Positions 15,601 to 58,457 of a DNA stretch of 64,000 bases are shown here, one piece after another. The position numbers and the translations under genes are program-made. Position 1 is the first letter of the stretch. Every line of letters begins with the position of its first letter. The notes beneath the pieces are model-generated. The model was not told the DNA's origin, did no database searches, and saw nothing but the letters and a program-made list of their open reading frames with translations. The stretch is from Phyllobates terribilis (taxonomy: Eukaryota): positions 410,440,001-410,504,000 of the forward strand of contig NW_027362769.1 in NCBI RefSeq assembly GCF_046119375.1, read 5' to 3'.

Positions 15601-18600
15601 TTCCTGTGAGCTTGACAAGATGTACCTCGAAGCAGAGATTACCCCCAAGTCTCTGTCCCCCTCCAACCCGGTGGAGGACTTCCAGTTGTCTCCTGTACCC
15701 TCTGGGGTGCCACCTGAAAATATGTGGAGAGAGACTTCCTTGTGTGCTGTTCCTGGTACTCCACCCGTTTCGTCTGTTGCTAAGGGTGGCTGGATGGGAG
15801 GTAGCATCCTAGCTAACCAGAGGAGACCAGTTTTTCCGGTGGACAGTGGAAGTGATCTCTTCGAAGTGAAGAATTGGCCCTCGAATTCCCTGCGGAAGAT
15901 TCTGGCAGGCCTGAAGAAGAGGGGGCGTAAGGGGGGGGGTACTGTAACATACCTGGCGGCGTCCTTGCATAGTGGTCCATCTCCCACTGTGCAAGAGCGC
16001 GCACTTGATCTCCTGTCCAGAATGTCTCTCTGGCTTTCCTCCTTGCTGTCTGTTTGTCTGTTTTGGCTGCATAGGGCGACGCCCGCTGAACTTCCTGTTT
16101 CTTGTACCTGTTGCGGACACGCCCCTGTTGCACCTTCAGCCTATTGCTGTCCATCTTTGGGTATTTATACCACCTTCTTCCTCAAGATGGCGCCTGAGCA
16201 TAGTGTTTCTTTCAGTGTGTGCTTGCACTCTGAAGGTGCCAGGTCCCGTTCTGTGTTCTCTTGTCTGCCTATCCTGGAGGCTGTATTTCCAGACCTGTCT
16301 GAACACGCTCCTAGCCTGTTCCTCCTGCCTTCTAGGGGCCGATTACCTAGACCTGTTCCTGTATCTTGTCTGACCTGTCTGAACACGCTCCTAGCCTGTT
16401 CCTCTCGCCTTCTAGGGGCTGATTACCTAGACCCGCTCCTGTATCTTGTCTGTCCTGTCTGAACACGCTCCTTGCCTGTTCGTCCTGCCTCTCTGGGGGC
16501 CGTATTCCCAGACCCGCTCCTGTATCCCGCTGCAGTGTCGGTCTCCTCCGTACACTCAGTTCCAGTCTGAACTCTCTCCTATCCTTTAACTGTTTTGCCT
16601 CTATGTCCGTTCCCTTCCTTTTTCTGCAGAGTCTGAACTCGTACCTAACTCCTGCTTGTTGTCTCTGTACTCCCGTTTGTGAGTTTGTGGTCCACTCGCT
16701 ACTTCACTGCAAGTACCCTGTGGGTGTCTGGCTCTGCCTTTCCCTTCCTGTCTGTTCCGTGTGAACAGAGGCCTGTCCCCCCTACTCAGCCTAGCCTGCT
16801 CTGACTCCTTTGCTCACCGCTCCGGCGGTTCTAGCCTGCTCTGACTCCTTTGCTCACCGCTCCGGCGGTTCTAGTCTGCTCTGACTCCTTTGCTTACCGC
16901 TCCGGCGGTTCTAGCCTGCTCTGACTCCTTGCTCACTGCTCCGGCAGTCCTGTCCTGCCCTGCTTCTGCCCGCTGCTCCAGCAGTCCTGTCCTGCCCTGC
17001 TTCTGCCCGCTGCTCCGGCAGTCCTGTCCTGCCCTGCTTCTGCCCGCTGCTCCGGCAGTCCTGTCCTGCCCTGCTTCTGCCCGCTGCTCCGGCAGTCCTG
17101 TCCTGCCCTGCTTCTGCCCGCTGCTCCGGCAGTCCTGTCCTGCCCTGCTTCTGCCCGCTGCTCCGGCAGTCCTGTCCTGCCCTGCTTCTGCCCGCTGCTC
17201 CGGCAGTCCTGTCCTGCCCTGCTTCTGCCCGCTGCTCCGGCAGTCCTGTCCTGCCCTGCTTCTGCCCGCTGCTCCGGCAGTCCTGTCCTGCCCTGCTTGT
17301 GCTCGCTGCTCCTGCAGCCCTGTCCTGCTCTGTTCTTGCCCACCGCTTCGGGCGTTCCCTCTCTGCTGTGGTTGTCTACCGCATCTGCGGTTCTGTGACC
17401 CAGTCTGTACTGGGTCTTAACCTTTCTGTGCTCCAGCCCGTCCTTTCGGCCAGTACCTCCCTGCCTGCATACTCGCCTGTATCCACCCATCTGCATACCT
17501 GCCGTGTTTGCTTATATCCACCAGTCTGTGCCTGCCTAACCTGCCTGTTCCTGAGTCCCAGTGTGTACTGGGTCCTATCCCGCCTGTGTTCCTACCTGCT
17601 AGTGCCTCCCTGTCTGCACTCTAGCTGCGCTTGCCTTTACCCGCCTGCCTGCATACCAGTCGTGCCTGCCTATACCCTCCAGTCTGTGCGCCAGCCTAAC
17701 CAGCCTGATCCAGTAATCCCTGTGTGGGTCAACCCCCGTGTCCGGAGTTTGACCTGGAGTAGCACCTGGTCCCTCTGCCCGGTTTCTCCCTGGTGCACTG
17801 GCGTCGTATGCCGTCGTGCCATCTTGGTCGGATCGGCCAGATACTTAGTCACGCCCCTCCAGGCACTCTCCGGTTCATGGTCCAGTGGAATCACTACAAT
17901 CACACGCACACGCCGCTCAGCCCGGGCGTGTGCATAACACTTATTCTTAGCTCTACATCTAATAATAATTATAAAACTTAACCTAACCCTAAAACTAAAC
18001 CCTAACAGAGATGAACAAATCTCCAGAAATTAGTTTTGGGCAGATTCGCTAGAATCGTCGGGCAGATTCGTTCTAATGGGCCCCTCATTACCTTTTATTA
18101 TTCTCTGAGGTCTCTATAGAACTCAAAGCCCATGAAACTGAGGGCGGAGAAGGGGTGAACAGTAATAAAAGATTACACTGACCAGTTGAAAACCTGCCGC
18201 CCACCTCTCCTGCCACCGCAGCGCACCACTTTGTCCTCGGCTTTGGACTGTGTAATTGGTCTTCAGTATTCTGGTACTAAAAGGTCAATAACGTGCAGAC
18301 ATGTCGCTCAACATGAAATGAGGTCTAGTCGGTGCCAGAAGACTGAAGAATGATCACCTTTAAAGAGCTAGAAAGCAAGGATCGGGCGGGGATCTGCGGC
18401 AGCAGGACAGGTGAGGATAAGATTTATTTATACGAATCCTGAAAAATTTAAATTCTGGCAAATTCCAAATTTTTAAGGAATTTGTAACTAGTGTGATAAT
18501 GAATTTGATTCCCTCTTCTCTACATGCAGTATAATCCTGCCCTTAATCCTAATCCTAACAATGTATCTAACCCTAACACTAAATCAGATTCCAACCCCAA

Positions 18601-21600
18601 CCTATTACCCCAATTCCAACACTGAATTTAGCGCTAATTTTAATTTTAAACGGAATCCCAACCCTTATCCTACAGGTAACCCAATCCTAGCACTAAAACT
18701 AATCCTGACCCTAACCCTACTAGCAACCCTAACCTAAGCAGAAAATCTAATCGCAACCTGAATTCTACATCTAATCCTAACACTAACCCACGCTGATCCT
18801 TAACCTCACACCTAGCTGAAATCGTAGTGGTTGTCAGTGCAGTTCCTCCGGACAATGGTTCTTCTACAAGTCATTTTCTTGGGTGGTTTCTATCTTACCC
18901 AGGGTCGTAGACAGTTGCAGCAGCTCCTCGTCGTACAGACTGTCTGTCACATCAGTAATGTTGACTCTGCCCTTTTTCTTGGTGTGATAGAGGATCCCGA
19001 ATGTGCAGTGGGACAAGTCCTCACTCATCTGCTGGAAACCATCGTTGGAGATGAAACATGGCCGGACACCTAGGACGTGGTCTCTGAACTCCTCAGTTTT
19101 CAGCAGAGCCTTCAGCCAAGAGTAATCTCTTTCCGCTGAACTTGAGAAAATCCCAACGTTATATTTTGTCCCAAACACAACCTTGAAATGAAAAAGACAT
19201 TAAAATATTAACGGGCAACTAAAAGAGGACTGCAGACTGCACCGGGTCTCTACGACTCTACTAAGGTCTCAAGCTCCTTCATGGAGGGGGCACCAATATT
19301 TCACCAGTGGTTAGAACTATAGCCCTGCAGCGCTGGGCTCCTGGGTTCAATCCCACCAAGGACAACATCTGCAAGGGGTTTTTATGTTCTCCCCGTATTT
19401 GTGTGGATTTCCTTCAGGTTCTCTGGTTTCCTCCCACACGCTAAGACATTCTGATAGGGAATTTAGGCTGTCAGCCCCAAAAGGGACAGTGATGATGATA
19501 ATGTTTTGTATAGCGCTTTGGAATTAATGGCGCTATATAAGTTAGGAAAATAAATAAATAAAAATATATCTACCTGTTTGGAAATGTCGGCCTGATAACC
19601 TGTAGAGCAAAAAGAAATTCAAGTGAAGAAATGCAAGTAAAATGGTTGAAATATTACTGCTTACTACTAGAACCTGTATTGGAAATACTACTACTATCAG
19701 GCCAAGGAGCTTTGGAGATGGTCAAAACCAACTATTTTTTTTTCAAGCGCAAACTGGTTCCTTCTATGTGAAGTTTTTGGAGGAGTTTTGAAAAGTTTTT
19801 GAAGAGTTTTCTATTTTTGCTTTTCCTTAGTTTTTTATGTAGCCTTATGATTGGACGGGGCCTAGTTTAGAGCAGATTCCATCACAAGATGTTTCAAAGA
19901 AGTGACATGTAGTTTCTTTTTTTTTTTCCCAAATGGTATTTTACAAAATCAAAAACGGAAAAGAAAAAAAGCTCAAAAAATGAACATGTGAACAGAAAAG
20001 TGGTTTTACAAAAGAAATAAATAGGAAATGTTTTGGCGCAGCTCAAAATAATCTCCGCCTGCACATAGTCTCGCTCTAACCCCTGCCAAAAAATGATGAA
20101 AAGTTCAAAATTATGGATTCACTGGGATTTTTCACTTCCTGATAAATCTACATAGGACAGATCAGAACTTTTTGCTTCTTGAAATTTTTCTCAAGCTCAT
20201 GAAAGTCAAATATTTGTATTAATGGCTGATGTTTCACCAGATCGTTGGTCGCCACCAATGATAAATATTCTACATTTTTCTTCTTTCGAGTCTCTCGATG
20301 AGCTGGTGATCGATCAGCTCTGCAGATTGGAGCCATTATTTTGATTTACTGACTTTGTGTTGGATTTCCATCTTAAGAGAGTTGTATGATCCTTTCCATT
20401 GTTACAATGAACGTCTCTGGCTGGTATTAAGGATGAAGTTAATATCCAGACACAATGGGCTCATAGAGGACCCAAAAATGATAATAGATGACGATAGATG
20501 TAGGGTTCCCCATCCTTATGTAGCGCCCTGAGGGCTCGGCTGCTACAGGGGTATTGCACCTCAAACCAGAGGTGTGATATTCCACTCCCGGGTAAGGATG
20601 GAGTGTGGACCAGGACTCGTTAGGCTGCATGCACCACACACACCCCATTTCCGAGGGACAGGTCAACGGTGCTCCCACGAGACAGGAGTGCAGGCACGAC
20701 AGCATCTGTCCCTGTCTGGAGTGGGGAGGGGAAGGAAAACCCAGTGGTGTAGGAGCAGATAGGGGTGGGTCTCTGGGCAAAGGTAGGAGCCCATTGGTTG
20801 CTAGTCACCTGGGCTCACACATAAGGGAGGTATATAAGGTGGGCACCATCTTAGGACAGGGTCCAGTTCAGTGCAGTCTGTGAGGAGAGCAGACAGGGAG
20901 CAGCAGCTCAGGCTGGGTGCTGCTCCAGAGGCAGGCCTAGAGAAGAGGCCGGAGCCTGAGAGGAGAAGGAGAAGTAGGAACTGGAACTGGAACAGAAAGG
21001 AGATAAGGGAACTGGAACACAGAGAAAGGCCCAGAGACACGAGGACAGAAGGAACCCCATAGGCCCAGGAGATTGCGGGTGAAGGGTTGGCAGAGCAGGG
21101 TACCGGAACCCAAATTGGTGGAGGTAACAGATTCCTCAGCCAAAGACCGGAGGTTGTGACCACATCTTGGTGCGACCCCTCACTACATCCACCAGGAAAG
21201 CATACCACATAAGGTCAGGGAAACCGGAGATAGGTTTCGCCAAGAGAAGGCCCGAGGGAGCTGGACAAAGGTGGGTCACTGGTGAGGACGGCCAGAGAAG
21301 GGAAGAGAAGGGAGCCCTGTGCCACGCTCTGGAATTGCCTGGGAGTTGGTCGAGCCCCCTGCCTGGTGGACGCAGCACGGCTTGGGCAGTCATCGCCTGC
21401 AGGATTGACACGAATAACAACTGTGAGTAAAGCATTGGAAACTGCAGCCCCACGTCTCTGTGTTTCATCGCCGCACCAGCACCATCAGTATTGGGACGCT
21501 CAAACCATCACTCCCATCATCCACACAAGCTGCCCTGAGGCAATACTCCTCCCGTGGGGAGTTATCCCATACTTGGCTGCGCATACAACATCAGCCTCAG

Positions 21601-24600
21601 CAGTCTGCAGCGCAGCGGCGGTCCCCACTGACCGCAATCCACGGGTGGCGTAGTCGGACAATTATCATAATACTAAGACTGCCACTGGTTTGACCACCCT
21701 GAGCCACGGACCGGGTCGCTGCCACACTGAGACTACTACCCCCCAGCATCCCACCAGAGGACCGGTTCCGGATTCCCCACGCGGCCCAGGGGGCGAGTTA
21801 ACTTTTGGCGTAGTCGGCAGGATCTTTACCAACCCGCCACAAGCGGGTATTGCGTGCCTGAAGAAGATTGTGCATGTACCTTGAAAAGGAGTCTCCCGCC
21901 ATTTCCAGAAGTTTCCCGCCATCAGGGGCCGATTCCTGCCATCAGACGCCATCTTGGACCGTTTCCCGCCATCTTCATCCGTTTTTCCCGCCCTGGCAGA
22001 GCGGACGCCATTATGTGCGCACCAAAAGACAGCAGGAAGCTGCCTCCCATCGTGGGCCAGGTCTCGGAATGGCGCCAAAGAAGGAGCCCGCCCCCACCAG
22101 CCATGAATGCAGCAGTGGAGATGTCCATCAACGTGGGGGGGCTGCCCCTAAAGGTGATTGTCAGCAGATGCCCCCAAGACCACCCCCCATGGGGGCGGAT
22201 AGGAAATAAAACTGTGGGGCCGGGCGCGGCCTGGATCAGTCTGGACCTGCTGCACCCGGAGATGGAGGGAGCAACGAACCCCACCAGCACCCTGGCCCGC
22301 AGCCTACTGCAAGCTGAGCCACCCTGCAGCCTGACAGAGTTGCTGGCACAGCTGCCCAGAGACCCGGCCTGCGCGCGAGCTGCGCTTTAGGATCTGAATC
22401 AGAGGATGGTCCGGGCGCAGCAAGATGTGTTTCCGGGTGGAAGGAGGAGTTGGCCCGGCAGCACGAAAACAGCCAGCGGAGGACCCCGCAAGGACCGAGC
22501 AGCGCGCCTGCTGCCGAGCGCGGTGAAGATGGACCGGCGGCAGCGGACGACGCCGCGGAGGAGGCAACGGAGGCCGAGGCAGGTAACGGGGATGCCACCA
22601 CTCTACGCCCTGAGATCACCAGCCTGCCCCCACCCTCCGTTGCGGGATCCGAAGACCCGGGGACCGAACCTGACATCACGCCTCCACCGCCGCCAGCTAG
22701 GCCTCAGGCTGCAGGCGTCGCTTACACGCCCCGCCCCGCGCTGTGCCCTCTGAACCCAGGCGCCGTAAAGCAGGAGACGTCACCGGCCAGGATGCAAGGC
22801 CTAGTACACCCGGGCGCCGCTGCCTCACCAGCGCCCCCTACCGTGACTGTGCCATCCCTGGGTGCGACCATCAGGCGACCACCGGCCTGGTCGCAAGGCC
22901 GAGTGCCCCGGGTGCTGCTCCCCAAAGGGGGTCCCATGCAATACCACCCCTGGGCGCGGATCTCTTCGCCCAGCATACGGACCCAGATGGAATGCCCCTG
23001 GTGTGGCCGGCCAAACTGACCAGCGGTCAGCCCTGGAGAGCTCCACCCCTGCGTGAGCCTCTGATACCGGCTCCGGATCCCACGGAAGTCGCCCCGCCCC
23101 CACTACAAGAAACACAGGCGGACGCAGATCGTCACCTGGACTGCTGCCGTCAACAGCTGGCCACCTATGAAAGGGAGCGGCGGCAGAGGCGCATCAGGGA
23201 GGAGCGACTCCAAGCCCGGAGCGCAGAGCAGAAGAGGAGAGCCCGTCAGGACTCCCAAGCCATCCGCGGTCCATGAGCGACCAGAACCATAGTAAAGTTC
23301 CAGCTGGAGCACGACTGGGGCTTCATAAGAGACCCGGAGGCTGACACCGACGTCTTCGTCACCAGGAGAGACGTCGAAAGCCACTTGCCAGAGGGACATC
23401 ACGGCCGTGACCTGTACCCCGGCGACGGGGTCACCTACACCCGGCACAAGGGCGCAAAGGGACTGTACGCCCTCCATGTCCACCGTCTAACGGAGGAGGA
23501 GCTGCGGTACCGCCCAGACATGGACTACCCAGAGGGTCCGGACGGACCTGAAGACTACCCGGAAGAGCGAGGAGGACACCGTTACCAGTGAACAGTAAAA
23601 TTGTAACTGTATATAGTTACCCGTCTGGGTACAAGGACTGTTTTTGGAACTGTTCCCGGTTTTGAAAGTGTGGTCCCCGTTGGGACAAATAGTGAACTGT
23701 TGACTGTTTAAAAATAGCCCCTAATCCCTAACCAGGCTGAGGACTGTGAGCAGCCATTCCCCCTTGCCAAAACTGGCCGAGGACTGAGAGCAGCCATCCT
23801 GTAAATAGTTGCGCTTCTTAAAGCGCCCCCTACTGGTTTTATAGAAGAACTGCAATGTCTACCTCAAGACGGATTAAATGGACTGTTGCACTTAAAAGAA
23901 GAGTGAGCACCTGGTCACAAGTTGCACCGCGGCCAGGATTCAAGAATGTGTTTTGAGAATGTTTTCCTTGCGAATGTTTTATAATGAAAAAAGTTTTATA
24001 TGCTGCTAGAGTAATAATGCAAATGTTTTATGTGATGTTTTATATGATAAAAGAGTACCAGTAACGTTGAAAGGGAAAAGTGCCTCCCATAAAGGGATGG
24101 GTTAATAGTTATTGTCTTATATACGAATGCATTCTAAAATTTTTGTATGTTTTAAATTGTTTTTGCTCTTTTCCAGCCCAAGGACGTGCTGTGATTTACC
24201 AGGGGGGAATGTAGCACCCCGAGGGCTCGGCTGCTACAGGGGTATTGCACCTCAAACCACAGGTGTGATATTCCACTCCCGGGTAAGGATGGAGTGTGGA
24301 CCAGGACTCGTTAGGCTGCATGCACCACACACACCCCATTTCCGAGGGACAGGTCAACGGTGCTCCCACGAGACAGGAGTGCAGGCACGACCGACTATGT
24401 CCCTGCCTGGAGTGGGGAGGGTAAGGAAAACCCAGTGGTGTAGGAGCAGATAGGGGTGGGTCTCTGGGCAAAGGTAGGAGCCCATTGGTGGCTAGTCACC
24501 TGGGCTCACACATAAGGGAGGTATATAAGGTGGGCACCATCTTAGGACAGGGTCCAGTTCAGTGCAGTCTGTGAGGAGAGCAGACAGGGAGCAGCAGCTC

Positions 24601-27600
24601 AGGCTGGGTGCTGCTCCAGAGGCAGGCCTAGAGAAGAGGCCGGAGCCTGAGAGGAGAAGGAGAAGTAGGAACTGGAACTGGAACAGAAAGGAGATAAGGG
24701 AACTGGAACACAGAGAAAGGCCCAGAGACACGAGGACAGAAGGAACCCCATAGGCCCAGGAGATTGCGGGTGAAGGGTTGGCAGAGCAGGGTACCGGAAC
24801 CCAAATTGGTGGAGGTAACAGATTCCTCAGCCAAAGACCGGAGGTTGTGACCACATCTTGGTGCGACCCCTCACTACATCCACCAGGAAGGCATACCACA
24901 TAGGGTCAGGGAAACCGGAGATAGGTTTCGCCAAGAGAAGGCCCGAGGAAGCTGGACAAAGGTGGGTCACTGGTGAGGATGGCCAGAGAAGGTAAGAGAA
25001 GGGAGCCCTGTGCCACGCTCTGGAATTGCCTGGGAGTTGGTCGAGCCCCTTGCCTGGTGGACGCAGCACGGCTTGGGCAGTCATCGCCTGCAAGATTGAC
25101 ACGAATAACAACTGTGAGTAAAGCATTGGAAACTGCAGCCCCACGTCTCTGTGTTTCATCGCCGCACCAGCACCATCAGTATTGGGACGCTCACACCATC
25201 ACTCCCATCATCCACACAAGCTGCCCTGAGGCAATACTTCTCCCGTGGGGAGTTATCCCATACTTGGCTGCGCATACAACATCAGCCTCAGCGGTCTGCA
25301 GCGCAGCGGCGGTCCCCACTGACCGCAATATCCACGGGTGGCGTAGTCGGACAATTATCATAATACTAAGACTGCCACTGGTTTGACCACCCTGAGCCAC
25401 GGACCGGGTCACCGCCACACTGAGACTACCACCCCCAGCATCCCACCAGAGGCCCGGTTCCGGGTTCCCCACACGGCCCAGGGGGCGAGTCAACTCTTAC
25501 AAGCAGCTTGCCATGTGAATAGAGTGCTATACCCCAAAGCTGCTCCATCTAATGTCTTATCGACAGCCTCATCTGGTTCTCTCTGCTCAAACTCTCATGT
25601 CCTTACTCTGGTCAATGACTGTTGGGGTCATGTAGGATATAGACCTTCTCCTTCCCCTTTGTACTTATTCTGAGGTGGGAAGATAAGGCAGTCCATGGTT
25701 CAGAGTAAAGACCAAGAGACACATTAGATAGATGTAATCTAAGTGATCGGCTGACAGCGTCTCTCCCAACTCCTCCATACACATGAACAGTTGGCCAAGC
25801 ATCATCTGTCGGGGAGAGTATAGAGGTCCTCATAGCCAAGCATCATCGGTCGAGGAGAGTCTAGAGGTCCTCATAGCCAAGCATCATCTGTCGGGGAGAG
25901 TCTAGAGGTCCTCATAGCCAAGCATCATCTGTCGGGGAGAGTCTAGAGATCCTCATAGCCAAGCATCATCTGTCGGGGAGAGTCTAGAGGTCCTCAAAGC
26001 CAAGCATCATCTGTCGGGGAGAGTCTAGAGATCCTCATAGCCAAGCATCATCTGTCGGGGAGAGTATAGAAGTCCTCATAGCCAAGCATCATCGGTCAGG
26101 GAGAGTCTAGAGGTCCTCATAGCCAAGCATCATCTGTCGGGGAGAGTCTAGAGGTCCTCATAGCCAAGCATCATCTGTCGGGGAGAGTCTAGAGATCCTC
26201 ATAGCCAAGCATCATCTGTCGGGGAGAGTATAGAGGTACTCATAGCCAAGCATCATCTGTCGGGGAGAGTCTAGAGGTCCTCATAGCCAAGCATCATCTG
26301 TCGGGGAGAGTCTAGAGGTCCTCATAGCCAAGCATCATCTGTCGGGGAGAGTATAGAGGTCCTCATAGCCAAGCATCATCTGTCGGGGAGAGTCTAGAGA
26401 TCCTCATAGCCAAGCATCATCTGTCGGGGAGAGTATAGAGGTCCTCATAGCCAAGCATCATCTGTCGGGGAGAGTATAGAGGTCCGCATAGCCAAGCATC
26501 ATCTGTCGGAGAGAGTCTAGAGATCCTCATAGCCAAGCATCATCTGTCGGGGAGAGTATAGAGGTCTTCATAGCCAAGCATCATCTGTCGGGGAGAGTCT
26601 AGAGGTCCTCATACACATTAGACTGTCGGCCACTCCTACAGATATCAGTGGTTTAGGAAGACTTTGGTTAAAGGTGTACAGGAGACCCTTAGACAATCAC
26701 TGTATTCCTATATGGAAGCTATGACATAATATGTAACTTAAAAATCCACAATTGTGCTGTGAACACAATTCACCGTGTCGAGACTCCATATATTACATTT
26801 TATTATCCTCCGTTTATCCTTCCCATATTATACCTTTGACTCCGCCATTTATTTACAAAAACACATAAAACCTGTAACGAAGTAAAGGATTTTCAGGCAC
26901 TAACCTCGGGCGGCGACATTGTTAGATTCCGGCTCCGAGGAATTATAAAAACACTTCTGATAATCTGACATCTTCTCCATCGCTGTGAACAGGAAGACAG
27001 CCCGGGCATATTTCTTTATATTCGGATACTTTTCTATCATCCGATCCTTCTCATCATTATCGCTGTTCCTTACATTATCAATCACCACAACCAGATTCTT
27101 CTTCCCTGTAAACACAAGACTGAGTTCAGACCACGACCGTTTAAACTGAGATATTAATAGAAAAAAAATTTATGTTACAGATTATACAGATTTTTCTAAT
27201 TTTTCATTAAACTCACAACAGAAAATATTGCTATTTCTCACTGTCCGCTGAGTCCTCACAATAAGTGTATAATTCCTGTGACTTTTCCGCTTACACTGTG
27301 CACACTGGGACCAGAGTCAGCAGTTATCTCATTATCAGCACAGACAGGAGGACAATGAGTGGCTCTATTATAAAGACAGATCACATAGGAGCCATCATTG
27401 ATTACAGGCCCCGGGGGCCACTCTGCTCCTGTACAGCGGCCTCAGTACATGACACAGAGCATGCTCATAACACTCTTATATAGGAGTCAGTAAGTTATGG
27501 GAGCAGGTCAGCTCCTCCCCCCCTGCACAGAGACCTCTGCACATGGCACAGAGCATGCTCAGTACATTGTCTCATAGAAATCAAGAGGTGATTGGAGCAG

Positions 27601-34000: not shown

Positions 34001-34221
34001 ACTGTCCCGGTCACTTGCTGTGACCTCCTGCCCGTTTACCCAGAGACTGTCCCGATCACTTGCCGTGACCACCTGCCCGTTTACCCAGAGACTGCCCCGA
34101 TCACTTGCTGTGACTACCTGCCCATCTTCCCTGGGTGCCACCCGCTTCCTTACAAGGACCGCCCCCTTGTATAGTTGCTCAGAGGTTCCGCCTCCCAGAC
34201 CCGTTACAGTTTGCTCGGGCC

Positions 34222-35172
34222 ATGGAACCCGGTGGCACCCAAGCTCCCTCGCTCTCGGACCTTTGTCATGAACTGTCCCGACAGAGGTCCCAACAGGAGT
34301 CCATCCTGGGTCACCTGCGGAATGTCAATTCTCGCCTGGACACATTGACTGCTCCGCTAGCAACCACCGCTAGTGTCATGACTCGCAGCCTGGCTGCTCC
34401 GCTGTCCGCCAATACCATAGTATCCTGCTCCAGAACCCGGCTTTCTGCATCTCCTCGCTTCGGAGGCGACTCCGCTCAAGCTCGGGGCTTCATTAACCAG
34501 TGCACCCTGCACTTTGAACTCCTGCCCCACCAGTTTAATTCCGACCGGGCCAAGGTAGCCTTCATCATGTCCCATCTCACGGGGGAGGCACTGGCTTGGC
34601 TAAATCCTCTATGGGAGAGAGGAGATCCCCTGGTGTCCGACCTGCCAGCCTTTCTCACGGCTTTCCGGAAGGTCTTCGACGAACCCGGACGGAAGACCTC
34701 ATCAGCCTCATCTCTGCTACGCCTCCGCCAAGGGAGTCTCACCGTGGGCCAATATGCCATACGGTTCCGTACCCTTGCTTCGGAGCTGGCCTGGGATAAC
34801 AACGCCCTGGTGTCCGTCTTCTGGGAGGGTCTGTCCGGCCGTATTAAAGATGAACTCGCCGGTCGGGACATTCCTACCACTCTCGACGACTTAATTACAC
34901 TTGCCACCCGGATTGACATCCGGTTCCAGGAGCGCGCCAGGGAGGTCACCCGTGAGAGGAGGTTTCCACGTCTAGCCCCTACCTTCCAGAGACCCGTCAC
35001 TCCCTCTGTTACTCCCCAGGCACACTCACCTGAGCCTATGCAGGTCGACCAGACCAAGATGGTCAAGACCCGTCAAGACTTACGTCGTGCCGAGGGGAGC
35101 TGTTCCTACTGTGGCAGTAAGGAGCACCGGATCCGTTCCTGCCCAGAGAGGTCGGGAAATGCCTGTGTCTAG
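34222..35172 (+). CDS. Sushi-type Gag (coiled-coil, capsid, CCHC knuckle CSYCGSKEHRIRSC)
   Basis: ATG 34222 directly after the priming site; Retrotrans_gag-type motifs; open to TAG 35172. Confidence 0.92.
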   Translation: MEPGGTQAPSLSDLCHELSRQRSQQESILGHLRNVNSRLDTLTAPLATTASVMTRSLAAPLSANTIVSCSRTRLSASPRFGGDSAQARGFINQCTLHFELLPHQFNSDRAKVAFIMSHLTGEALAWLNPLWERGDPLVSDLPAFLTAFRKVFDEPGRKTSSASSLLRLRQGSLTVGQYAIRFRTLASELAWDNNALVSVFWEGLSGRIKDELAGRDIPTTLDDLITLATRIDIRFQERAREVTRERRFPRLAPTFQRPVTPSVTPQAHSPEPMQVDQTKMVKTRQDLRRAEGSCSYCGSKEHRIRSCPERSGNACV

Positions 35173-37009
35173 GATCGCTCAGAGAGGTCGCCCTAGACAA
35201 AAGTAAACCCTCTCCATCCCTGATGCTGTCTGTTTCTATCTTCTGCGGAGAGAACCGCTATTTTGAACAGGCTCAACTTGACTCAGGAGCTGCTGGAAAT
35301 CTCATCTCTCAATCCCTGGTAGAAAAATACCGCATTCCCACCAAACCTCTGGCCGTACCTTTATCTGTCGCCGCCGTGGATGGGGGCCTCTTACCACATC
35401 CCATCCAACTCATCACCGAATCTCTGACTCTACAGGTGGGAATGCTGCATTCTGAGAGCATCTCCTTTCATGTTCTGCCTGGACTCTCTCACGCACTATT
35501 GCTTGGCCTGCCTTGGCTCCAGAAACATGTGTGACACCCCAGGGGTCTGGTTGCCACAGTAATAGAGATATTATGTCTGAGAGCAAGTGGGAGGTTTCTC
35601 TGGTCAGGATCCCTAAGCATGCAACACGGTCCGCCCAGACCTGGGAGGGGAGGAATCTGCCCTTTTAAACTGGGTCTGGGGCGGGATTAGAGCAGTCAGA
35701 GTCTGGAGAGGGAAAGTGAGATCAGGAGCTCTGTAGGAGCAGTAGCAGAAGTCCAGGGGCTGGAGCTGAGCAGAGTTCGCCCTGGACGAAGATACTAAAG
35801 CCGGACACAGGAGTCCGAGGCTGTGGGGACTGATATACACCCAGCAGCAGAGACCAGCCGGCAGGGGATTCCAGGTCCTCTGGCCATAGAAGCCCGGAGG
35901 CTCAGTCACAGAGAAGGGACCAGCGCCGCCATCCAGGAGCGGAGGCTAACAGAAGGCCCCAAGTCACCAGCCATACGGGTGAGCACCACACGGTATACTC
36001 AGGGACGTGGGCTACTTGTAACCGCTGACAGCAAGGTAGCCAGAAAGAGTGCCGATAAACGGGGAGGCCTACAACTCCACCTGGCCAGGGGAACTCCTGC
36101 TTGCTCGCAGACTGACCAGGCCCCTTATACTAGCCAGTACTCCCGGGAGGGTCTGCCTTGTACTATCAGTAAAGACCCTGAACTGCACCACCCGTCTCTG
36201 TGATTCCTTGCCGCACCAGCACCATTAGTACTGGGACGCTCACACCATCACTCCCATCATCTTCCACCTTAGCTGCCCTGAGGCAATACTCCTCCCGTGG
36301 GGAGTCATCCCATACTCAGCTGCGCAAACAACATCAGCCTCAGCGGTCTGCAGCACAGCGGCGTTCCCCACTGACCGCAATCCACGGGTGGTGTAGTCGG
36401 ACACTTATTACCATACAAATAGACTGCCACTGGTTTGACCACCCTGGGCACGGACCGGGTCACCGCCACGGAGGACTACAACCCCCAGCGATCCGGCTCC
36501 GGGTATCCCCCTGCACAGCACAGGCTCAGGGGGCGCGTCAACTTTGGCGTAGTCGGCAGGATTTCGTGCCCGCAACCACCGGGTACTGCGTGCCTGAAAA
36601 AGACTTTTGAACTTACCTGTGGTGAAGTTTCCCGCCGTCCGGAGTCGTTTCCCGCCATCCGGAGTCGTTTCCCGCCGTCCGGAGTCGTTTCCCGCCATCA
36701 GACGCCATCTTGGACCGTTTCCCGCCGTCTTCTGCCTTCTTCCCGCCATCCGCAGCTGCTTCCCGCCTTCGCACGCCATCTTCGGGACGCCGCACAGGAA
36801 GAAGAGGGGTGTGGACGCCGAAAGCGCGCGAGATCCGAAGCTCCGCCGCACGCTCTGACGCTGCGCAAGGTCCTGGAAGGGAGGAAGAGCGACGCTGACG
36901 TCATCGGAGCGCGACGCCAGGTCCTCAACCCCGACGATCGACTGCGGAGCCGCGGCCTACGGAAGAAGAGCATCGCAAGGTAGGCCACGGTCCACTAGGG
37001 GGGAGGAGG

Positions 37010-37992
37010 ATGCCGGACACCGAGGGGAGCTCCACTGCCACAGCCACCGCCAGCGCAACCGCTGCAACAGTCATGCCATTCACCATGCCCTATATCCCGG
37101 GGGCAGCCTGGCTACCCCAGTACTCAGGGGAGTCACATACCCTAAATGACTTTAGAGAAAGACTGGATAGCCTCTTCCAGGTGTACCCCCTCACAGAAGA
37201 GCAAAAAGTGAGCATCCTGGTGGCCCAATTAATCGGGGCAGCCCAAAGGGAGGTAAAGTCCTGGCCACCTGGGAGGAAGAGGACTGTCAGAGACATACTA
37301 ACCCGGCTGAAAGACACATTTGACACCCGCACCTCAGCCGAAATAAAACTAAGATTTTATGGGTGCAAACAACGGGCACATGAGAGTATAAGAGACTATG
37401 CGCTAAACCTACAAGAGGCCCTGAAAGCCATTAAGCAGGCAGACCCTGACAGCGTGGGAAATGAAGATAAGCTGTTGACTGAACAATTTATGGAGGGTCT
37501 ACTGTGCAATGCCCACCGAACACATTTGCGGGCAATGGCCTTACAGGACCCTGACCTGGACTTTGCACAGTTCAAGGACAGAGCCATCCGGGTGCTCCGA
37601 GAACCGGCACCAGGTGGCGCTGTGACCCACAGGCGCCCTGCTATCACTTACCACCAGGAGACGGCGCCCTTGTCTGCAGGGCCTGTGGGAGCTGATGCGC
37701 AGGCTTTAAACAGTGACCCGGCTACAGACCTGCACCATCAGGTCCAAGAGCTGACTAAGAGCGTTGCCGCGCTAACCAGAACTGTGCAGTCTTTACAGGT
37801 CTCTTCTCCAGGAAAGATCCAGCTGGCCTCCGGACCGGAGGATGTCCCGTGGCGCCGACTGAGGAGGACCCACCGGCCAGAGGAAGACCCAGCGACAGAT
37901 ACAACGAGGAAGGACGACCCATCTGCCGCCGCTGCAATCAACCTGGACATGTGGCAAGGTACTGTCATTTAAACGGGCACAACCTGGGGTAG
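37010..37992 (+). pseudogene. Gag of the nested element (1-bp frameshift before the CCHC knuckle)
   Basis: ORF 37010..37972; CRRCNQPGHVARYC lies in another frame from ~37870. Confidence 0.85.
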
Positions 37993-40900
37993 AGGGCCAA
38001 CCCCCAGGCATAAGACCATCAGGCCCATCAAACTGGCGTGATAAATACGTAGGGGGACGTCCAATCTTGCCTGTGGTACTGGATGGCATTCCTATGAGTG
38101 CCCTACTAGACACCGGGTCACAGGTCACCACCATCCCGTACATGCTCTTCAAGCAGTACTGGAATGACTCGGACATAACCCGCTACCCAGATGATGACCT
38201 GAGTATCATCGCCAGCAATGGTCAGCCCGTGCCGCAGGTGGGATTCAAAGAGGTGACCATTAAGATCGGTAAAGTCGAACTGGCGGCACAAGGACTGATT
38301 ATAGTGGACATAGACCGTCATGAGAGTCACCCTAGAATAACCTTGGGAACTAATGTGATTGAAAATTGTCTTGCAGAGGTGATTCTCATTTTACAGCAGG
38401 TTGCCAAGAACGCCAGTTCCGGCCAGCAGCGTGTGCTCCAAAAAGAGATCCGGGCACTGATGAAGCGGCAACAGGTGGAACTATCTGGTGGTGAGATAGG
38501 TAGCGTGAGAATGTGTGACCCGTTCCCTATTGCCATGCCCCCAAAAAGTGAGATGATGATTTGGTGCCGGGCAGCTATTGGTCTAAGAGGTAGAGACTAC
38601 CAAGCAATGGTAGAACCCGTCTACTCAGACAGTAGGCCCACCATTTTGACAGCACGGGGGGTGGTCGATGTACGCCATGGGAGGGTGCCCGTTCGCATCA
38701 TAAATATCGGGGAGAGAGAAGTATACCTGCCCCGGTATGCCACGCTAGCCAAATTGTTCACCATAAACCAGAATTCTGTACAGGCCGTGGAACCCTTGCC
38801 TCCATCTCAACCAGAGGAAGGTAACGGCTCTAAGAAACCAATGGAGGACTGGTGTCAGCAACTGCATTTGGGTACTGACTCCACTCCCTCACACCAGAAA
38901 CAGGGAGTCTATCGGGTGGTTCGAGGGTACGAGAGAGTGTTTAGTAAACACCCGCTAGACTTCGGGTGAGTAAAGGGGGTAGAACACCACATCCCCACGG
39001 GAGACCATCCTCCCATAAAGGAGAGATACCGACCCGTACCCCCGGCACACTACCAACACGCCAAGGGGATGCTTAGAGACATGAAGGAGGCTGGGGTAAC
39101 CAGGGACAGCTGTAGCCCCTGGGCAGCTCCACTAGTCTTAGTGAAAAAGAAAGACAACACCATGAGAATGTGTGTAGATTACAGGAAGGTCAACCGTATC
39201 ACACACAAAGATGCGTACCCGTTACCAAGGATAGAAGAGTCCTTAGCTGCCTTAAAATCTGCTAACTTCTTCTCTACTTTGGATCTCACTAGCGGGTACT
39301 GGCAGGTTCCTGTAGCAGAGGCGGACCGGGAGAAGACCGCATTCACCACCCCGATGGGTCTCAGCGAATTTAACTGTATGCCGTTCGGGCTCTGCAACAC
39401 ACCAGGAACCTTCCAACGGTTGATGGAATGCTGTCTGGGACACCGGAACTTCCAGACGGTCCTGTTATACCTGGACGATGTCATCGTCTATTCCAAGACC
39501 TACGAGGACCACCTGAAACACCTGGCAGAAGTGTTCGAAGCTCTGGCAAACTACGGCCTAAAGGTGAAACCCTCCAAGTGTCACCTCCTGAAACCAAAGG
39601 TGCAATACCTGGGACACGTGGTGAGTGCTGACGGAGTGGCTCCCGACCCTGATAAGATCACTGTGATTAAGGAATGGCCAAGACCCTCCAGCATAAAGGA
39701 AGTGCGGCAGTTCCTCGGGTTGGTAGGCTACTACCGAAGATTCATTCCCGGTTTCACCAAAATGGCAGCCCCTATGCAGAACCTCCTGATAGGTCAATCT
39801 CGGAAAGCCAAAAACCAGAAGCCGCCCTTTAGGTGGGAAAAGCTGGAAGAGGAGTCCTTCTGCCAGCTGAAGATGGCCCTCACGGGGGATGAAATCCTGG
39901 CATATCCAGACTACAGCCAGCCCTTTATCCTCCACACGGACGCAAGCAACATCGGGCTAGGAGCCGTACTGTCCCAGATCCAGCAAGAGAAAGAACGGGT
40001 AATCGCTTACGCCAGCCGAAAGCTACGGCCCACGGAGAGGAACCCTGAGAATTATAGCTCATTCAAGCTGGAGTTCCTGGCAGTAGTGTGGGCAGTGACC
40101 GAACGTTTCAAGCATTACCTTGCCTCCTCCAAATTCACCGTGTACACGGATAACAACCCGTTGACACACCTGGACACTGCAAGGCTCGGTGCCCTGGAAC
40201 AGAGATGGATGGCCCGCCTGTCCAACTTTGAATTCACCATCAAATACCGGGCAGGGCGCTCGAATGCCAACGCGGATGCCCTGTCTAGAATGCCGAACTT
40301 ACCGGACGTGGGGGAAGATCCAGAAGATCTGGAAGAAGTTGAGCTCCCTGCGTTCCACCGTCATGGGATTACCCTGTATTCCCACCGTGTGAAGGACAGG
40401 CGCTCCGTGACGTTCAATCCCTTGCCCCACTACAACTGGGCGGAGACGCAAGACAGTGATCCCGCAGTCCATTTGGTGAAGGAAATGCTGACCCAGGCCG
40501 ATGCCCGTCTTGACCCAGATGCTCCGGAGGAGACCAAGCAACTGTGGAAGGAGAAAAGTAAGCTGTTCCTCTACAGGGAGAAGCTGTGCCGGAGAATGGT
40601 TAACTCTCGAACGCATGAGTTGACCTGGCAGGTAGTGGTCCCAAGACGAGACGCGGCTATGGTTCTGGAGGCATACCACAACGGAGCAGGGCATTTCGGA
40701 TGGAAGAAGCTGGAGTTCTTGTTGCGTGAACGTTTCTACTGGGTAGGCATGAGAGGAGCCATCGAGAGGTGGTGCAGAGACTGTGGCCCGTGCCACCTGA
40801 GAAGAAAGGACCGTGCCAGCCAGAAGACTCCCTTGCAGCCCATCATCACCAGACAGCCACTGGAACTGGTAGCCCTGGACCATGTGAAACTGGCTCCAAG

Positions 40901-41987
40901 CAGATCTGGCTATGTCTACGCCCTCACAATCGTAGATCATTACTCCCGGTTCCTGGTGGTGGTCCCGGTCAAGGACTTAACGGCTCAAACAGCAGCTAGA
41001 GCCTTCCAGCAGCACTTCTGCCATCCACATGGTTACCCGGACCAAGTGTTGACAGACCAAGGACCAGCCTTCGAAGCGGAGGTCTTCCAGGAGTTCTGCA
41101 ACCTGTATGGCTGCAAGAAGATAAGAACAACGCCCTATCACCCTCAAACCAATGGACTCTGCGAGAAGATGAACCAGGTGGTGATAGATCTGCTAAAAAC
41201 ACTGCCCCTGGAAGAACGCAGTCTGTGGCCTGAGAAACTGTCCGATCTGGTGGACCTGTATAACCACATCCCTGTAGGTTCCACCAACTGTACCCCGGCT
41301 TACCTAATGAGAGCAAGACCTGGTAAGCTGCCTATTGACCTGGATATGGGAGTCCTGACGCCTGAGGACACCTCGCCAGAGGCAGACTGGGATACAGAAC
41401 GGCAGCAGCAGTATCGGAAAGTACAGGAGAGCGTCGAGCGAAGTCTGTCTCAAGCTAGAGAAAGGCAAGAGACTGCCATCAAGCCATGAGAACCCAAAAA
41501 TCTGCGTAATCAGTAAGGATGGAGGAGAAACCACAGCCATTGTCTCCAGAGACCACCTGAAGAAGTGTCCCGAGCAGCTGCAAAGCCCTGAAGAAGATCA
41601 AGAAAATCCTCAACCCGCAGAGGAAAGGGAAGAAATGATCAGTACCGTACTCGGAGACTTCCCCCGGTCTTGGACACAAGTAACGGCGCTGTCGTAGTAC
41701 CCGTCCTCACCTTTCTCCAGCCAGCCCCGCAAGTACCTACAGAGGAACCGGTAGAGCTGGAAGAGCAGCCGGCCCAAGAGGCAGAAGAGTCCACACCAGC
41801 AGTACAGGAGGATCAACCCTCTGCTAGTAGTGAGCCTGCTGTGCCCCTAGTGAGCCAAAGAGTGCGCAGAAAGCTGCCCAGCTTACCCATAACACCTCCT
41901 ACACCCTGTAGTGCAGAACCAGTTAGTGAGCTCCGTAGGTCCACTAGAGTCACTAGAGGTCAGATGCCCGCTCGCTGGAGAATCTAA
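37968..41987 (+). pseudogene. Pol of the nested element (PR-RT-RH-IN); premature TGA at 38967-69 and deletion in the IN C-terminus
   Basis: LLDTGS, YLDD, TDAS, HHCC, ALDHV / LTDQG / LCEKMN; ORFs 38067.. and 39069.. are in the same frame. Confidence 0.92.
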
Positions 41988-44900
41988 ACCAATGCACTGT
42001 AAAGTTGACTGTTTATTGAAAAATGTTTATGGTTTTTGTTTGTTGCCTGTTACTAATTATGTTTCTCAGTTACCCTGCAGATTTATTTGGACTAACAGGT
42101 TATGGACACTGGATAACCGGAACAGTTTTGTAGATAGTTGCACCTTGGTGCCTCTTGCGAAGACGGCCGCGGAAGAGAAAACTTGTCTAGCGTGGCCTCC
42201 TTGCGGCCCAAAGTAGTTAGTCCAACCTTGCAGCCACGCCCAAGGACAACGCAAGGGGTTTGCTTTGGACAGGTCCCCTATTCTGTGCCAAGACTTCGCC
42301 TTGTTGGGTGATATGGACACCCGGTCACGGAAATGCCGTGACCTCTACAGACTAAAGCTTCTTGTAAATATGTTGTCTTGTTATTGTTATACCTTGTATT
42401 TATGTTTCTTCAAAAATGTGTTTAGTCCCGGAGTACTAAAATTTACTAGGGGGGAATGTGACACCCCAGGGGTCTGGTTGCCACAGTAATAGAGATATTA
42501 TGTCTGAGAGCAAGTGGGAGGTTTCTCTGGTCAGGATCCCTAAGCATGCAACACGGTCCGCCCAGACCTTGGAGGGGAGGAATCTGCCCTTTTAAACTGG
42601 GTCTGGGGCGGGATTAGAGCAGTCAGGAGAGGGAAAGTAAGATCAGGAGCTCTGTAGGAGCAGTAGCAGAAGTCCAGGGGCTGGAGCTGAGCAGAGTTCG
42701 CCCTGGACGAAGATACTAAAGCCGGACACAGGAGTCCGAGGCTGTGGGGACTGATATACACCCAGCAGCAGAGACCAGCCGGCAGGGGGTTCCAGGTCCT
42801 CTGGCCATAGAAGCCCGGAGGCTCAGTCACAGAGAAGGGACCAGCGCCGCCATCCAGGAGCGGAGGCTAACAGAAGGCCCCAAGTCACCAGCCATACGGG
42901 TGAGCACCACACGGTATACTCAGGGACGTGGGCTACTTGTAACCGCTGACAGCAAGGTAGCCAGGAAGAGTGCAGATAAACGGGGAGGCCTACAACTCCA
43001 CCTGGCCAGGGGAACTCCTGCTTGCTCGCCGACTGACCAGGCCCCTTATACTAGCCAGTACTCCCGGGAGGGTCTGCCTTGTACCATCAGTAAAGACCCT
43101 GAACTGCACCACCCGTCTCTGTGATTCCTTGCCGCACCAGCACCATTAGTACTGGGACGCTCACACCATCACTCCCATCATCTTCCACCTTAGCTGCCCT
43201 GAGGCAATACTCCTCCCGTGGGGAGTCATCCCATACTCAGCTGCGCAAACAACATCAGCCTCAGCGGTCTGCAGCGCAGCGGCGGTCCCCACTGACCGCA
43301 ATCCACGGGTGGCGTAGTCGGACACTTATTACCATACAAATAGACTGCCACTGGTTTGACCACCCTGGGCACGGACCGGGTCACCGCCACGGAGGACTAC
43401 AACCCCCAGCGATCCGGCTCCGGGTATCCCCCTGCACATCACATGCACCCGTGCTTGACTGGCAGACCGGAGAAGTCCTTCGCTGGGGACAGGACTGCCA
43501 TAAGACTTGTCTAGTTCCCGTTCGTCCTGCCCGTCCTTCTCCTACCCCAGCCAATCTGCCCGGTCTTCCGGTTCCCTATTGGTCTTATGCGGATGTCTTC
43601 AATAAAAAAGAGGCAGAGACTTTACCTCCTCATAGACCATACGACTGCCCAATCGACCTGATGCCCAGCTCTACTCCTCCCCGTGGGCGAATCTATCCTT
43701 TGTCCGCTGCAGAGACCCAGTCCATGTCTGAATATATTGAGGAGAACCTGGCCCGGGGATTTATCCGGAAATCTACCTCTCCGGCGGGAGCAGGCTTCTT
43801 CTTTGTCAAAAAGAAGGACGGCTCACTCCGTCCATGTATAGACTATAGAGGCCTAAACCAGATTACTGTGAAGAATAAATACCCCCTTCCGCTCATTCCT
43901 GAATTATTTGACCGTCTGAGGGGGGCTAGAATCTTCACCAAACTGGACCTCCGTGGGGCGTATAACCTGGTCCGTATCCGTCAGGGGGATGAGTGGAAGA
44001 CGGCATTCAACACCCGGGACGGCCACTATGAGTACCTTGTGATGCCCTTCGGTCTCTGTAACGCTCCTGCCATCTTTCAAGAGTTGGTCAATGACATCTT
44101 CCGTGATCTTCTCTACTCCTGCGTGGTGGTGTACCTGGACGACATCTTGGTCTTCTCTCCGGATCTTCCTACTCACCGGAGGGACGTTCGTCAGGTCCTG
44201 CTCAGGCTCAGGCAGAACCACCTCTACGCTAAATATGAGAAGTGCATCTTTGAGCAGACCTCTCTTCCATTTCTGGGCTACATAATCTCTCAGACAGGTC
44301 TACAAATGGATCCTGAGAAACTGTCTGCCATCCAAAAGTGGCCCCGACCAGAGGGGTTGAAGGCTATTCAGCGGTTCCTGGGCTTCGCCAACTATTACCG
44401 CCTGTTCATACCGCACTTCTCTTCCCGGACCGCCCCTATCTCTGCGCTCACCCGTAAAGGTACGAACCCCAGAGAATGGACACCCGAAGCAGAGGAGGCC
44501 TTTCTTTCCTAAAAAACAGGCCTTCCTCTCCGCCTCAGTGCTGCATCGTCCGGACGGCAACAAACAATTCTTCCTAGAAGTTGACGCCTCCTCCTCCGGA
44601 GCTGGGGCGGTACTTACCCAAAAGTCATCTTCCGGAAGAAAGGTAACCTGCGGCTTTTTCTCCAAACTTTTCTCCTCTTCTGAGCGCAGCTATTCTATAG
44701 GTGACCGAGAATTGTTGGCCATTAAGATGGCACTGGAGGAGTGGTGTTACCTGCTTGAGGGGGCTCTCCACCCGGTAATAATTTACACTGACCACAAGAA
44801 CTTGGCATATCTCCAGAGCGCCCAGAGACTTAACCCGCGCCAAGCCCGGTGGTCTTTGTTTTTTGCCCGCTTTGATTTCATTCTTCATTTTCGTCCGGCT

Positions 44901-47900: not shown

Positions 47901-47936
47901 CTTGTGTTATTTGTAACAATTGCTGGATGCTTTTGA

Positions 47937-50410: not shown

Positions 50411-50639
50411 ACATTGACCATTGCATATCTTGAACATGCCAGCATGGGAGACTAGATTACATTTTTACATTACATTTCCCAGGCTGGGAGGACTCTATAA
50501 ATAAGGTGATGACAAATGGTGAGGGCTCAGAGCATGATAGAGTGACTTGAATCCAAAAAGGAGGTAGTCCTGACTTACAGCCACCTAGAGAGGTGAAGGG
50601 AACTCTAGGAGAGGTTCTTCCTCTTATTCCAGGGGTTAA

Positions 50640-58387: not shown

Positions 58388-58457
58388 TGTTTGAACTCGT
58401 TATCAGTATAAAAGACACCTGTCCGTAACCTCAAACAGTCGCACTCCAAACTCCACT

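Follow-up and report, generated by a model that had tools for sequence, protein, structure and literature searches.

Background

Non-autonomous LTR elements mostly have non-coding interiors or encode Gag only. Mouse VL30, the plant LARD and TRIM elements, Cassandra, TR-GAG and maize Bs1 have LTRs, a primer binding site (PBS) and a polypurine tract (PPT), lack pol, and are mobilised by helpers via common cis signals. Some carry cargo, and their interiors are non-coding or hold RNA cargo, Gag, or Gag with a host fragment, while the pol-less LTR elements of Xenopus have a Gag-like zipper and knuckle. We know of no non-autonomous LTR element with a selected cold-shock domain (CSD) protein as its sole product.

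The closest published precedent is found in birds, where 46 endogenous retroviruses (ERVs) are LTR retroelements with a CSD (PF00313), captured repeatedly, for which the authors suggest adaptation (PMC12287698). These are retroviruses classed by RT in which the position of the CSD varies, and supplementary table 6 lists 45 rows for the CSD, and in the two that we inspected the domain scores 1e-24 to 1e-26, near host proteins (PMC12287698). Among frogs, Xenopus 1A11, lambda-olt 2-1 as well as Xretpos are likewise LTR elements that have an ORF and lack homology to pol, with 20-30 and 15 ORF copies and a mobility that their authors think lost; the passages describing them mention no CSD, and it is by description that they are set apart from the element reported here (PMC4585706).

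The element considered here lies in a 64,000-nucleotide stretch of the Phyllobates terribilis genome, which was analysed as a whole and is called the window. Unlike the bird ERVs it has no RT, carries a divergent CSD at the end of its only ORF, on which selection was measured, and is present in thousands of copies. Our literature search found no description of this family, the main text of the frog repeat and genome papers covered being silent on CSDs.

Structure and abundance of the element

The original prediction of a complete element holds, with paired LTRs of 97.6% identity, PBS, PPT and a 4-bp target site duplication (TSD) all present. Every feature is read on the forward strand, other than the TSDs and the bases beside the right one, which have no strand. 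The left TSD, CTTA (20515..20518), precedes the 5' LTR (20519..21800), and an exact 4-bp TSD is found in 35/42 relatives. The U3/R part of the LTR is specific to the family, while its terminal ~360 bp, the probable U5, are common to an autonomous element that we regard as the likely helper. A TATA-like box (TATATAA, 20831..20837), read from the sequence, recurs at LTR position 271-315 in 5/6 relatives, and a second PBS-like 12-mer within U5 (21646..21657) is also present in 6/6 relatives and in the likely helper. The PBS itself (TGGCGTAGTCGGCAGGAT, 21806..21823) is identical in the likely helper, whose leader is resembled by the 5' leader that follows (21824..22012), a putative packaging region. 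Downstream of the ORF are the PPT (AGGGGGGAA, 24201..24209), again the same in the likely helper, and the 3' LTR (24210..25492). Three extra bases, ACT (25493-25495), stand before the right TSD, CTTA (25496-25499); they repeat the spacer between LTR and PBS and are probably an untrimmed element end.

The PBS likely matches tRNA-Ser, as first proposed. Indirect evidence comes from five loci at which tRNA 3' fragments ending in CCA lie behind the PBS, one of them extending to a TGA-anticodon loop; neither ARAGORN nor Rfam found an intact Ser tRNA gene in the 7 loci from a pattern search. An ARAGORN 'Ala' call at one locus (L133) was rejected as a chimeric fragment.

The CSD element is a non-autonomous LTR retrotransposon, with paired LTRs, PBS, PPT and TSD and no RT, integrase or protease. 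That its interior holds no recognisable gag or pol was borne out, both by Pfam searches of the interior frames (five of which gave nothing above a Pfam cut-off) and by searches with the likely helper's gag, PR and pol proteins, which found no match between the LTRs of 38/38 copies. Among 40 position-sampled copies, 39 were likewise without a match, the exception (L163) having a pol match on the opposite strand and no 3' LTR that could be found. Classification as an autonomous Ty3/Gypsy element (Metaviridae) was rejected, gag and PR-RT-RH-IN being absent. The further claim that the ORF had replaced gag/pol stands for their absence and is conjectural as an order of events; the ORF bears no detectable likeness to the likely helper's Gag (hhalign probability 0.06%, on which a Gag origin was rejected). 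An Atlas search with residues 25-160 of the element protein gave no usable match, a viral fold library matched the protein only with CSD/S1 folds at E<=0.001, and the ORF showed no sign of a capsid-like part.

The family is high-copy and very young. Exact matches to the CSD motif number at least 7,808 in the genome, one subfamily is estimated at ~14,000 copies, and the exact junctions counted (566 and 16,717) point to recent amplification as a family. LTR pairs of subfamily B, the largest, are 98-100% identical, 6/19 of them at 100%. The CSD is present in 32/40 position-sampled copies (17/20 B-type and 15/20 A-type). Named relatives come from poison frogs only, with related predicted proteins in three frog genera; outside the named poison frogs a single Logan cluster (P0045/P0139) falls together with the CSDs of the element, and a search with it returned itself alone, word-based searches being weak for absence. 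Gene predictors already place the element among frog genes, calling it 'uncharacterized' or making it part of chimeric ones (P0003, P0140).

The ORF and its cold-shock domain

The single ORF (22013..23591) is broken in the window copy, and is open and ~510-630 aa long in many natural copies. The window copy had been thought to carry a lone TGA, which proved too simple: against one natural open copy it needs three frames, with stops at 22388-22390 and 23274-23276, a gap of 1 nt around 22433, small indels over 22906-22937 and ~54 nt lost at 23082-23118. Intact natural copies do exist, the ORF being open from the first Met in 14/20 subfamily B and 4/20 subfamily A copies, while a further A copy has an open frame of 620 aa. 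Although their lengths differ by up to 168 nt, 14/17 CSD-bearing B copies are open. Gaps among copies keep the frame in 32/32 cases, a figure that follows in part from the choice of open copies and is not counted as independent.

The encoded protein has a conserved helical block (~residues 92-154 of open copies, approximately 22286..22470) with no family match and, as predicted, a long Arg/Glu-rich, coiled-coil-like helix (residues 386-430, approximately 23120..23276) that runs into the CSD (23286..23483). Downstream of the CSD are only ~30 residues, mostly acidic, and the model of the full-length protein is mostly of low confidence (pLDDT 51). The CSD itself was confirmed by profile and by structure model. 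Frame 23277-23588 matches the Pfam CSD over residues 4-69 (28.5 bits against a cut-off of 27, E 1.4e-6) and is the sole CSD match among the six frames of the window, while Pfam finds the domain in 13/13 aligned element proteins. The model of a natural-copy CSD is a five-strand, OB-type barrel (pLDDT 86.5) that matches CspA and YBX structures, with an rmsd of 1.9 A against CspA 1mjc.

Whether this CSD is Y-box-like, as first described, depends on the measure used. By profile score it is, YBX1 coming first (54 bits, E 1e-13) ahead of CspA (44), LIN28 (24), CSDE1 (23) and CARHSP1 (21), but the tree does not group it with YBX, and the equivalents of W65 and H87 are lost. In that tree of 31 rows, which left out YBX1 itself, LIN28 and CARHSP1, the p-AU for grouping the element CSDs was 0.030 with CSDE1, 0.055 with YBX and 0.055 with two CSPs that we label bacterial-looking. 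A Y-box donor is favoured by profile score; the tree does not settle the donor. The element CSD resembles the Y-box proteins YBX1/2/3 (FRGY) in the long loop that links strands 3 and 4 and in its equivalents of F74, D83, F85 and K118; it differs in having ~30% identity and in replacing K64, W65, H87 and E121. Y-box proteins consist of an A/P domain, the CSD and a long tail of alternating basic and acidic stretches, whereas the element CSD is close to the C-terminus, follows a long helix and has no such tail. Across the 79 copies scored (of 92 in all, 13 failed to match the pattern), the equivalents of YB-1 F74 and D83 are kept in 79/79, F85 in 77 and K/R118 in 76/77, while those of Trp65 and His87 are replaced in 79/79, so that two of the four stacking residues are lost. 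In YB-1, exchange of any one of these four disrupts RNA binding (PMC7226217).

Selection on the ORF

The CSD, the coil and the helical block are under purifying selection, in line with the dN/dS below 1 that a functional protein had been expected to give. In five between-subfamily comparisons, which are not independent pairs and for which CSD score guided the choice of the A and first B copies, dN/dS of the CSD is 0.15-0.21 at dS 0.6-1.9, with 0.41-0.64 for the Pro-rich part and 0.11-0.28 for the Arg/Glu coil. Constraint is weak (0.41-0.86) over the N-terminal ~80 codons, and for this reason the true start of the ORF may lie further in. Among thirteen B copies sampled by position, the shared CSD variants comprise 10 nonsynonymous and 47 synonymous ones (0.08), and in 20 B copies CSD singletons stand at 0.65 against 0.09 for shared variants (Fisher p 0.0009), and selection therefore acted on the replicating lineage.

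These values speak to two ways in which the domain could be present without serving the element. A host CSD fragment might have been captured passively and carried along neutrally; the window copy is indeed disrupted, and in most of the A copies sampled the ORF is not open, yet the low between-subfamily dN/dS at such depth and the open B copies contradict this, and we find it hardly credible. Alternatively, the ORF might be kept for service to the host, for which the related predicted proteins in three frog genera could be cited. As the copies are in LTR insertions that are young and dispersed and differ in their TSDs, and as private variants come closer to neutral than shared ones, domestication appears very improbable. 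The original idea of a non-autonomous LTR family encoding its own selected CSD protein is instead supported by the real CSD, the open copies and a dN/dS far below 1.

A likely helper

At 35530..43446 of the window, on the forward strand, is an autonomous Ty3/Gypsy element with a PNMA-type Gag and PR-RT-RH-IN. This copy is itself broken, and the genome holds 11,230 exact LTR-PBS junctions of its family. It had been noted as showing no CSD ORF, and a CSD is absent there and in 10/10 of its relatives. The two elements share PBS, PPT, LTR ends, the 4-bp TSD length, U5 and leader, whereas most of U3/R and the entire coding interior are unrelated. Positions 21440-21992 of the window element are 78.5% identical to 36181-36747 of the likely helper, and U5 plus leader of three relatives reach 85-87%. 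The U5 and PBS of subfamily A are 92-96% identical to those of the likely helper, as close as A copies are among themselves, against 69-73% to subfamily B, and likely-helper U5s nest among subfamily A in a tree. For subfamily B, U5 is only 68-73% identical to the two helper types sampled, with PBS, PPT and LTR ends also in common. Three copies (L162, L175 and L134) contain 315 nt of likely-helper leader (83-87%); in L162 and L175 it lies 3' of an A-type PBS and leader and 5' of the 3' part of the CSD element, making them chimeras. Because of the subfamily A identities and these chimeras we take the autonomous family to be the likely helper, and from the recombinants we infer that its proteins mobilise the CSD element.

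The CSD protein might then replace nucleocapsid in helper particles, as the chaperone whose annealing activity serves tRNA priming as well as strand transfer. The modelled CSD fold would suit such a role, and titles in the reference list of one source describe YB-1 and CspA as annealing or chaperoning RNA (PMC7226217). However, the Gag of the likely helper keeps its CCHC knuckle in 10/10 copies, on which ground this replacement, raised in the original prediction, is decidedly unlikely, and the element ORF offers no detectable capsid-like part.

Derivatives without the CSD and putative processing signals

Eight of the 40 sampled copies are without a CSD, and the seven with LTR pairs are all 98.9-99.9% identical between LTRs. 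Two of them, L164 and L168, have a common breakpoint. Copying without an own CSD thus does happen. The spread of these derivatives would fit a protein that acts in trans, competing with host Y-box proteins or protecting the RNA of element and helper against small-RNA silencing, as would the youth and abundance of both the CSD element and the likely helper. Gypsy expression in ova, as reported, is also higher in O. pumilio than in Xenopus (PMC6278860). Such a counter-defence or decoy could favour a Ty3 boom in these frogs. Cheaters would, however, erode a freely shared product, yet 32/40 sampled copies retain their CSD, and synonymous changes strongly prevail among shared variants, and we consider action in trans rather unlikely.

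The protein could alternatively control how its own transcript is processed, acting on splicing, export or the choice of 3' end much as retroviral Rev/Rex do and sparing unspliced RNA that retains PBS and leader. The 5' LTR has a splice-donor-like GTGAGT fused with a poly(A)-signal-like AGTAAA (21423..21431), which recurs as GT[G/A]AGTAAA in 6/6 relatives; similarity to the likely helper begins directly 3' of it, and the likely helper has the AGTAAA without the donor. Just 5' of the PPT is a splice-acceptor-like pyrimidine tract with CAG (24160..24176), the tract being present in 6/6 relatives and the CAG end in 5. A putative splice between the two would delete PBS and ORF. The deletions in the CSD-less copies examined are nonetheless at short direct repeats and not at donor/acceptor pairs, and we regard this reading, too, as improbable.

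Proposed mechanism and significance

On balance, we think it probable that the CSD family is copied by a Ser-primed Ty3/Gypsy helper and that its protein binds the element's own RNA, for stability and readiness for packaging. Element RNA would be transcribed from the LTR and translated, and the protein may bind single-stranded RNA via the kept Phe/Phe/Asp/Lys face with added Arg, Trp and Tyr, preferring the RNA that encoded it. This RNA would enter likely-helper Gag particles by way of the common leader, be primed by the same tRNA as the helper and be integrated by its integrase. The CSD protein would help without being strictly required in cis, given that CSD-less derivatives also spread. Host YB-1 is reported to aid HIV RNA metabolism (PMC6040738). 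The replaced equivalents of Trp65 and His87, the CSD-less copies and the low U5 identity of subfamily B speak against this mechanism. In its fullest form, which is plausible though we hold it with less assurance, this would be a satellite-like retroelement of poison frogs without replication genes, whose remodelled CSD protein marks its own RNA for Ty3/Gypsy helper particles, which exchanges U5 with the helper so as not to fall behind it, and whose copy number now rivals the helper's.

In the frog family strong selection maintains a host-type protein other than Gag across thousands of young LTR copies, so an accessory RNA-binding protein appears to be worth its cost in an element that is parasitic on another parasite. 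Convergent CSD capture, so far a matter of domain matches in bird ERVs, gains a case in which selection has been measured, natural CSD-less derivatives can be compared and a likely helper has been identified. Together with the bird ERVs, the mechanism in its fullest form, if true, would mean that LTR elements have convergently adopted CSD capture as an accessory strategy. At an estimated 15,000-30,000 copies of 5 kb, the element would make up roughly 1% of a 10.6-Gb genome, and it is missed by pol-based counts; if the fullest form is right, it would be a contributor to giant frog genomes.

Structure and coding capacity of the element

All parts of a complete LTR element are present at 20519-25495, as originally predicted: LTRs at 20519-21800 (5') and 24210-25492 (3') that are 97.6% identical, a PBS from 21806, a PPT from 24201 and the TSD CTTA. 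Three additional bases at the 3' end (25493-25495), between the LTR end and the TSD, repeat the LTR-PBS spacer, which suggests an end left untrimmed at integration. The cold-shock domain (CSD) proposed for the end of its ORF was borne out, with the frame at 23277 exceeding the Pfam cut-off (28.5 vs 27 bits) and the CSD of a natural copy modelled as a CSD barrel (pLDDT 86.5, rmsd 1.9 Å to CspA). Decay is more extensive than the 'lone TGA' first described, as the window copy is interrupted by two stops and by frameshifts and lacks ~54 nt. The element belongs to the non-autonomous LTR elements and to PF00313, not to the Y-box proteins.

Elsewhere in the window, another LTR element (11795-17939, 98% LTRs) has one 873-aa frame with a Gag-like DUF4939 start and internal repeats, without pol. 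A Tc1-like transposase frame, recognised by eye, lies near inverted repeats at 58395-59477, and a tandem array of 31-bp units occupies 47783-50500.

Size and age of the family

The family is large and young. Searching the 10.6-Gb genome (G000) with the CSD piece turned up 36,815 first-look candidates, of which 150 were scored; all of these are 93-100% identical, and many sit in ~600-aa frames. Exact matches to one degenerate CSD motif number 7,808, a lower bound since the motif leaves out some codons. PF00313 returned 33,380 candidates, of which 30 loci were read: three yielded no frame, eight are host CSDE1-like and the remaining readable ones are element subfamilies. The host loci, which look CSDE1-like by sequence, comprise an intronless, partly tandem copy on C1 at 734.44 Mb (L071-L076) and exons on C2 at 702.79-702.81 Mb (L077, L078); one frame of the intronless copy continues into a LINE-ORF2-like stretch.

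Exact LTR-PBS junctions number 566 for subfamily A, 16,717 for B (the largest) and 11,230 for the likely helper (hereafter the helper), the autonomous element at 35530-43446. We sampled the junction loci listed first on C1, namely the first 20 for B and, passing over one previously used, 20 of the first 21 for A. A CSD was found in 17/20 B and 15/20 A copies, and 6/19 B copies have 100% identical LTR pairs. This suggests ~14,000 CSD-bearing B copies, from a sample of one chromosome end in which exact matching favours young copies. TSDs of relatives are 4 bp (exact in 35/42), and no gag, PR or pol lay between the LTRs of 38 copies read before the junction sample. Tandem elements sharing a middle LTR occur (L044, L106), as do candidate pairs 3.7-3.8 kb apart.

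Selection on the reading frame

Many natural copies retain an intact ORF, open from the first Met in 14/20 B and 4/20 A copies, with one further A copy holding a 620-aa open frame. Between subfamilies, dN/dS, from pooled and non-independent pairs, is below 1 in every region. The CSD gives 0.15-0.21, the coil 0.11-0.28 (one value undefined through saturation) and the helical block, at residues ~90-150, 0.10-0.49; the Pro-rich middle stands at 0.41-0.64 and the opening 82 codons at 0.41-0.86. Judged by these substitutions the ORF is selected, and it is highly improbable that it is neutral cargo.

Among 20 B copies, CSD variants give 0.65 for singletons vs 0.09 for shared variants (p 0.0009), and therefore selection acted during element replication. 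In the 13 position-sampled B copies alone (the 14 open ones minus the divergent L145) the same contrast is 0.16 vs 0.08 and not significant (p 0.35); their shared CSD variants comprise 10 nonsynonymous and 47 synonymous changes. Codons with several changes are omitted from both comparisons.

Range and origin of the cold-shock domain

The relatives of named origin come from Phyllobates, Ranitomeya and Anomaloglossus, as predicted proteins that cover the coding part only; one Logan cluster is a further relative. Three predicted frog proteins (P0003, P0140, P0007) join the element CSD part to unrelated sequence, namely transposase-like domains, an astacin/CUB protein and an unidentified tail, and are likely annotation chimeras.

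The description 'Y-box-like' matches the top profile score: built from 16 element CSDs, the profile gives 54 bits for YBX1/2, ahead of CspA (44), LIN28 (24), CSDE1 (23) and CARHSP1 (21). YBX did not rank first with a single-copy query or in the fold search. A tree of 31 rows places the element CSDs and the Logan protein in a single clade (96/84), and gives a p-AU of 0.055 for a sister grouping with YBX, which it neither establishes nor rejects.

Equivalents of the YB-1 RNA-face residues F74, D83, F85 and K118 are kept and W65 and H87 lost, with roles as given in PMC7226217, while an added Arg and Trp are invariant and an added Tyr near-invariant. RNA binding is therefore plausible, probably with a different specificity. 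That the protein controls splicing or the 3' end of its own transcript is possible and rather unlikely.

The likely helper and exchange with the element

The helper encodes a PNMA-type Gag and PR-RT-RH-IN, arranged as in Ty3/Gypsy elements, and is nested within a second Ty3 element (32908-47513) with a Ty3-capsid Gag. None of ten helper relatives has a CSD and all ten retain the CCHC knuckle; replacement of nucleocapsid by the CSD protein is improbable.

PBS, PPT, LTR ends and TSD length are common to helper and element. Their similarity begins directly after an AGTAAA word and spans U5, PBS and leader, with most of U3/R outside it. Subfamily A U5s are 92-96% identical to the helper and only 69-73% to B, and in a U5 tree the helper sequences branch from among those of A; the window copy is 86-90% identical to the helper, and B is 68-73% identical to both sampled helper types. 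Three mosaics (L162, L175, L134) contain 315 nt of helper leader, placed in L162 and L175 between an A-type PBS/leader and the 3' part of the CSD element; all three also hold a short unrelated stretch. Template switching between co-packaged RNAs is established retroelement biology, and such switches most simply explain these swaps.

A second PBS-like 12-mer lies inside U5 of the element (21646-21657) and helper (36389-36400). At five loci (L135, L136, L137, L182, L183; L136 and L183 being CSD-family elements) tRNA 3' fragments ending in CCA abut the PBS, as would result from copying of the primer itself.

Derivatives without the domain

The CSD is missing in 8/40 junction-sampled copies, and some such copies have spread; the benefit of the protein would therefore be partial or borrowable. 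Young derivatives lacking coil and CSD include L142, L144, L149, L164 and L168. Several losses fall at short direct repeats, with a common breakpoint in L164 and L168. A further CSD subfamily (L110-L112) has a CCAT-rich repeat before the CSD instead of a coil in 3/3 copies, and the PBS of L112, TGGCGTCACGAACAGGA, differs from the family's.

Known systems and a possible role for the protein

Non-autonomous LTR families occur in plants and mouse. CSD capture by LTR elements is already in print for birds, where PMC12287698 describes 46 ERVs with a CSD and several separate captures. Xenopus has pol-less LTR elements with an ORF, according to PMC4585706. A gag/pol-less family with a selected CSD protein as sole product was not found in the literature searched, a scope outside which lay Repbase, Dfam and most subscription journals.

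We favour, at somewhat better than even chances, a satellite-like element that has its RNA coated by the protein it encodes. What is seen directly is how the element is built, how many copies exist, that its ORF is selected and that it exchanges sequence with the helper. The ORF would be translated, the protein would coat the element's RNA, and the coated RNA would stay stable and compete for helper particles. Counter-defence by the protein in trans is unlikely, to the same degree as control of splicing or the 3' end, and domestication of the ORF by the host seems very unlikely. Selection during replication implies that the benefit of the CSD protein would go mainly to the RNA encoding it.
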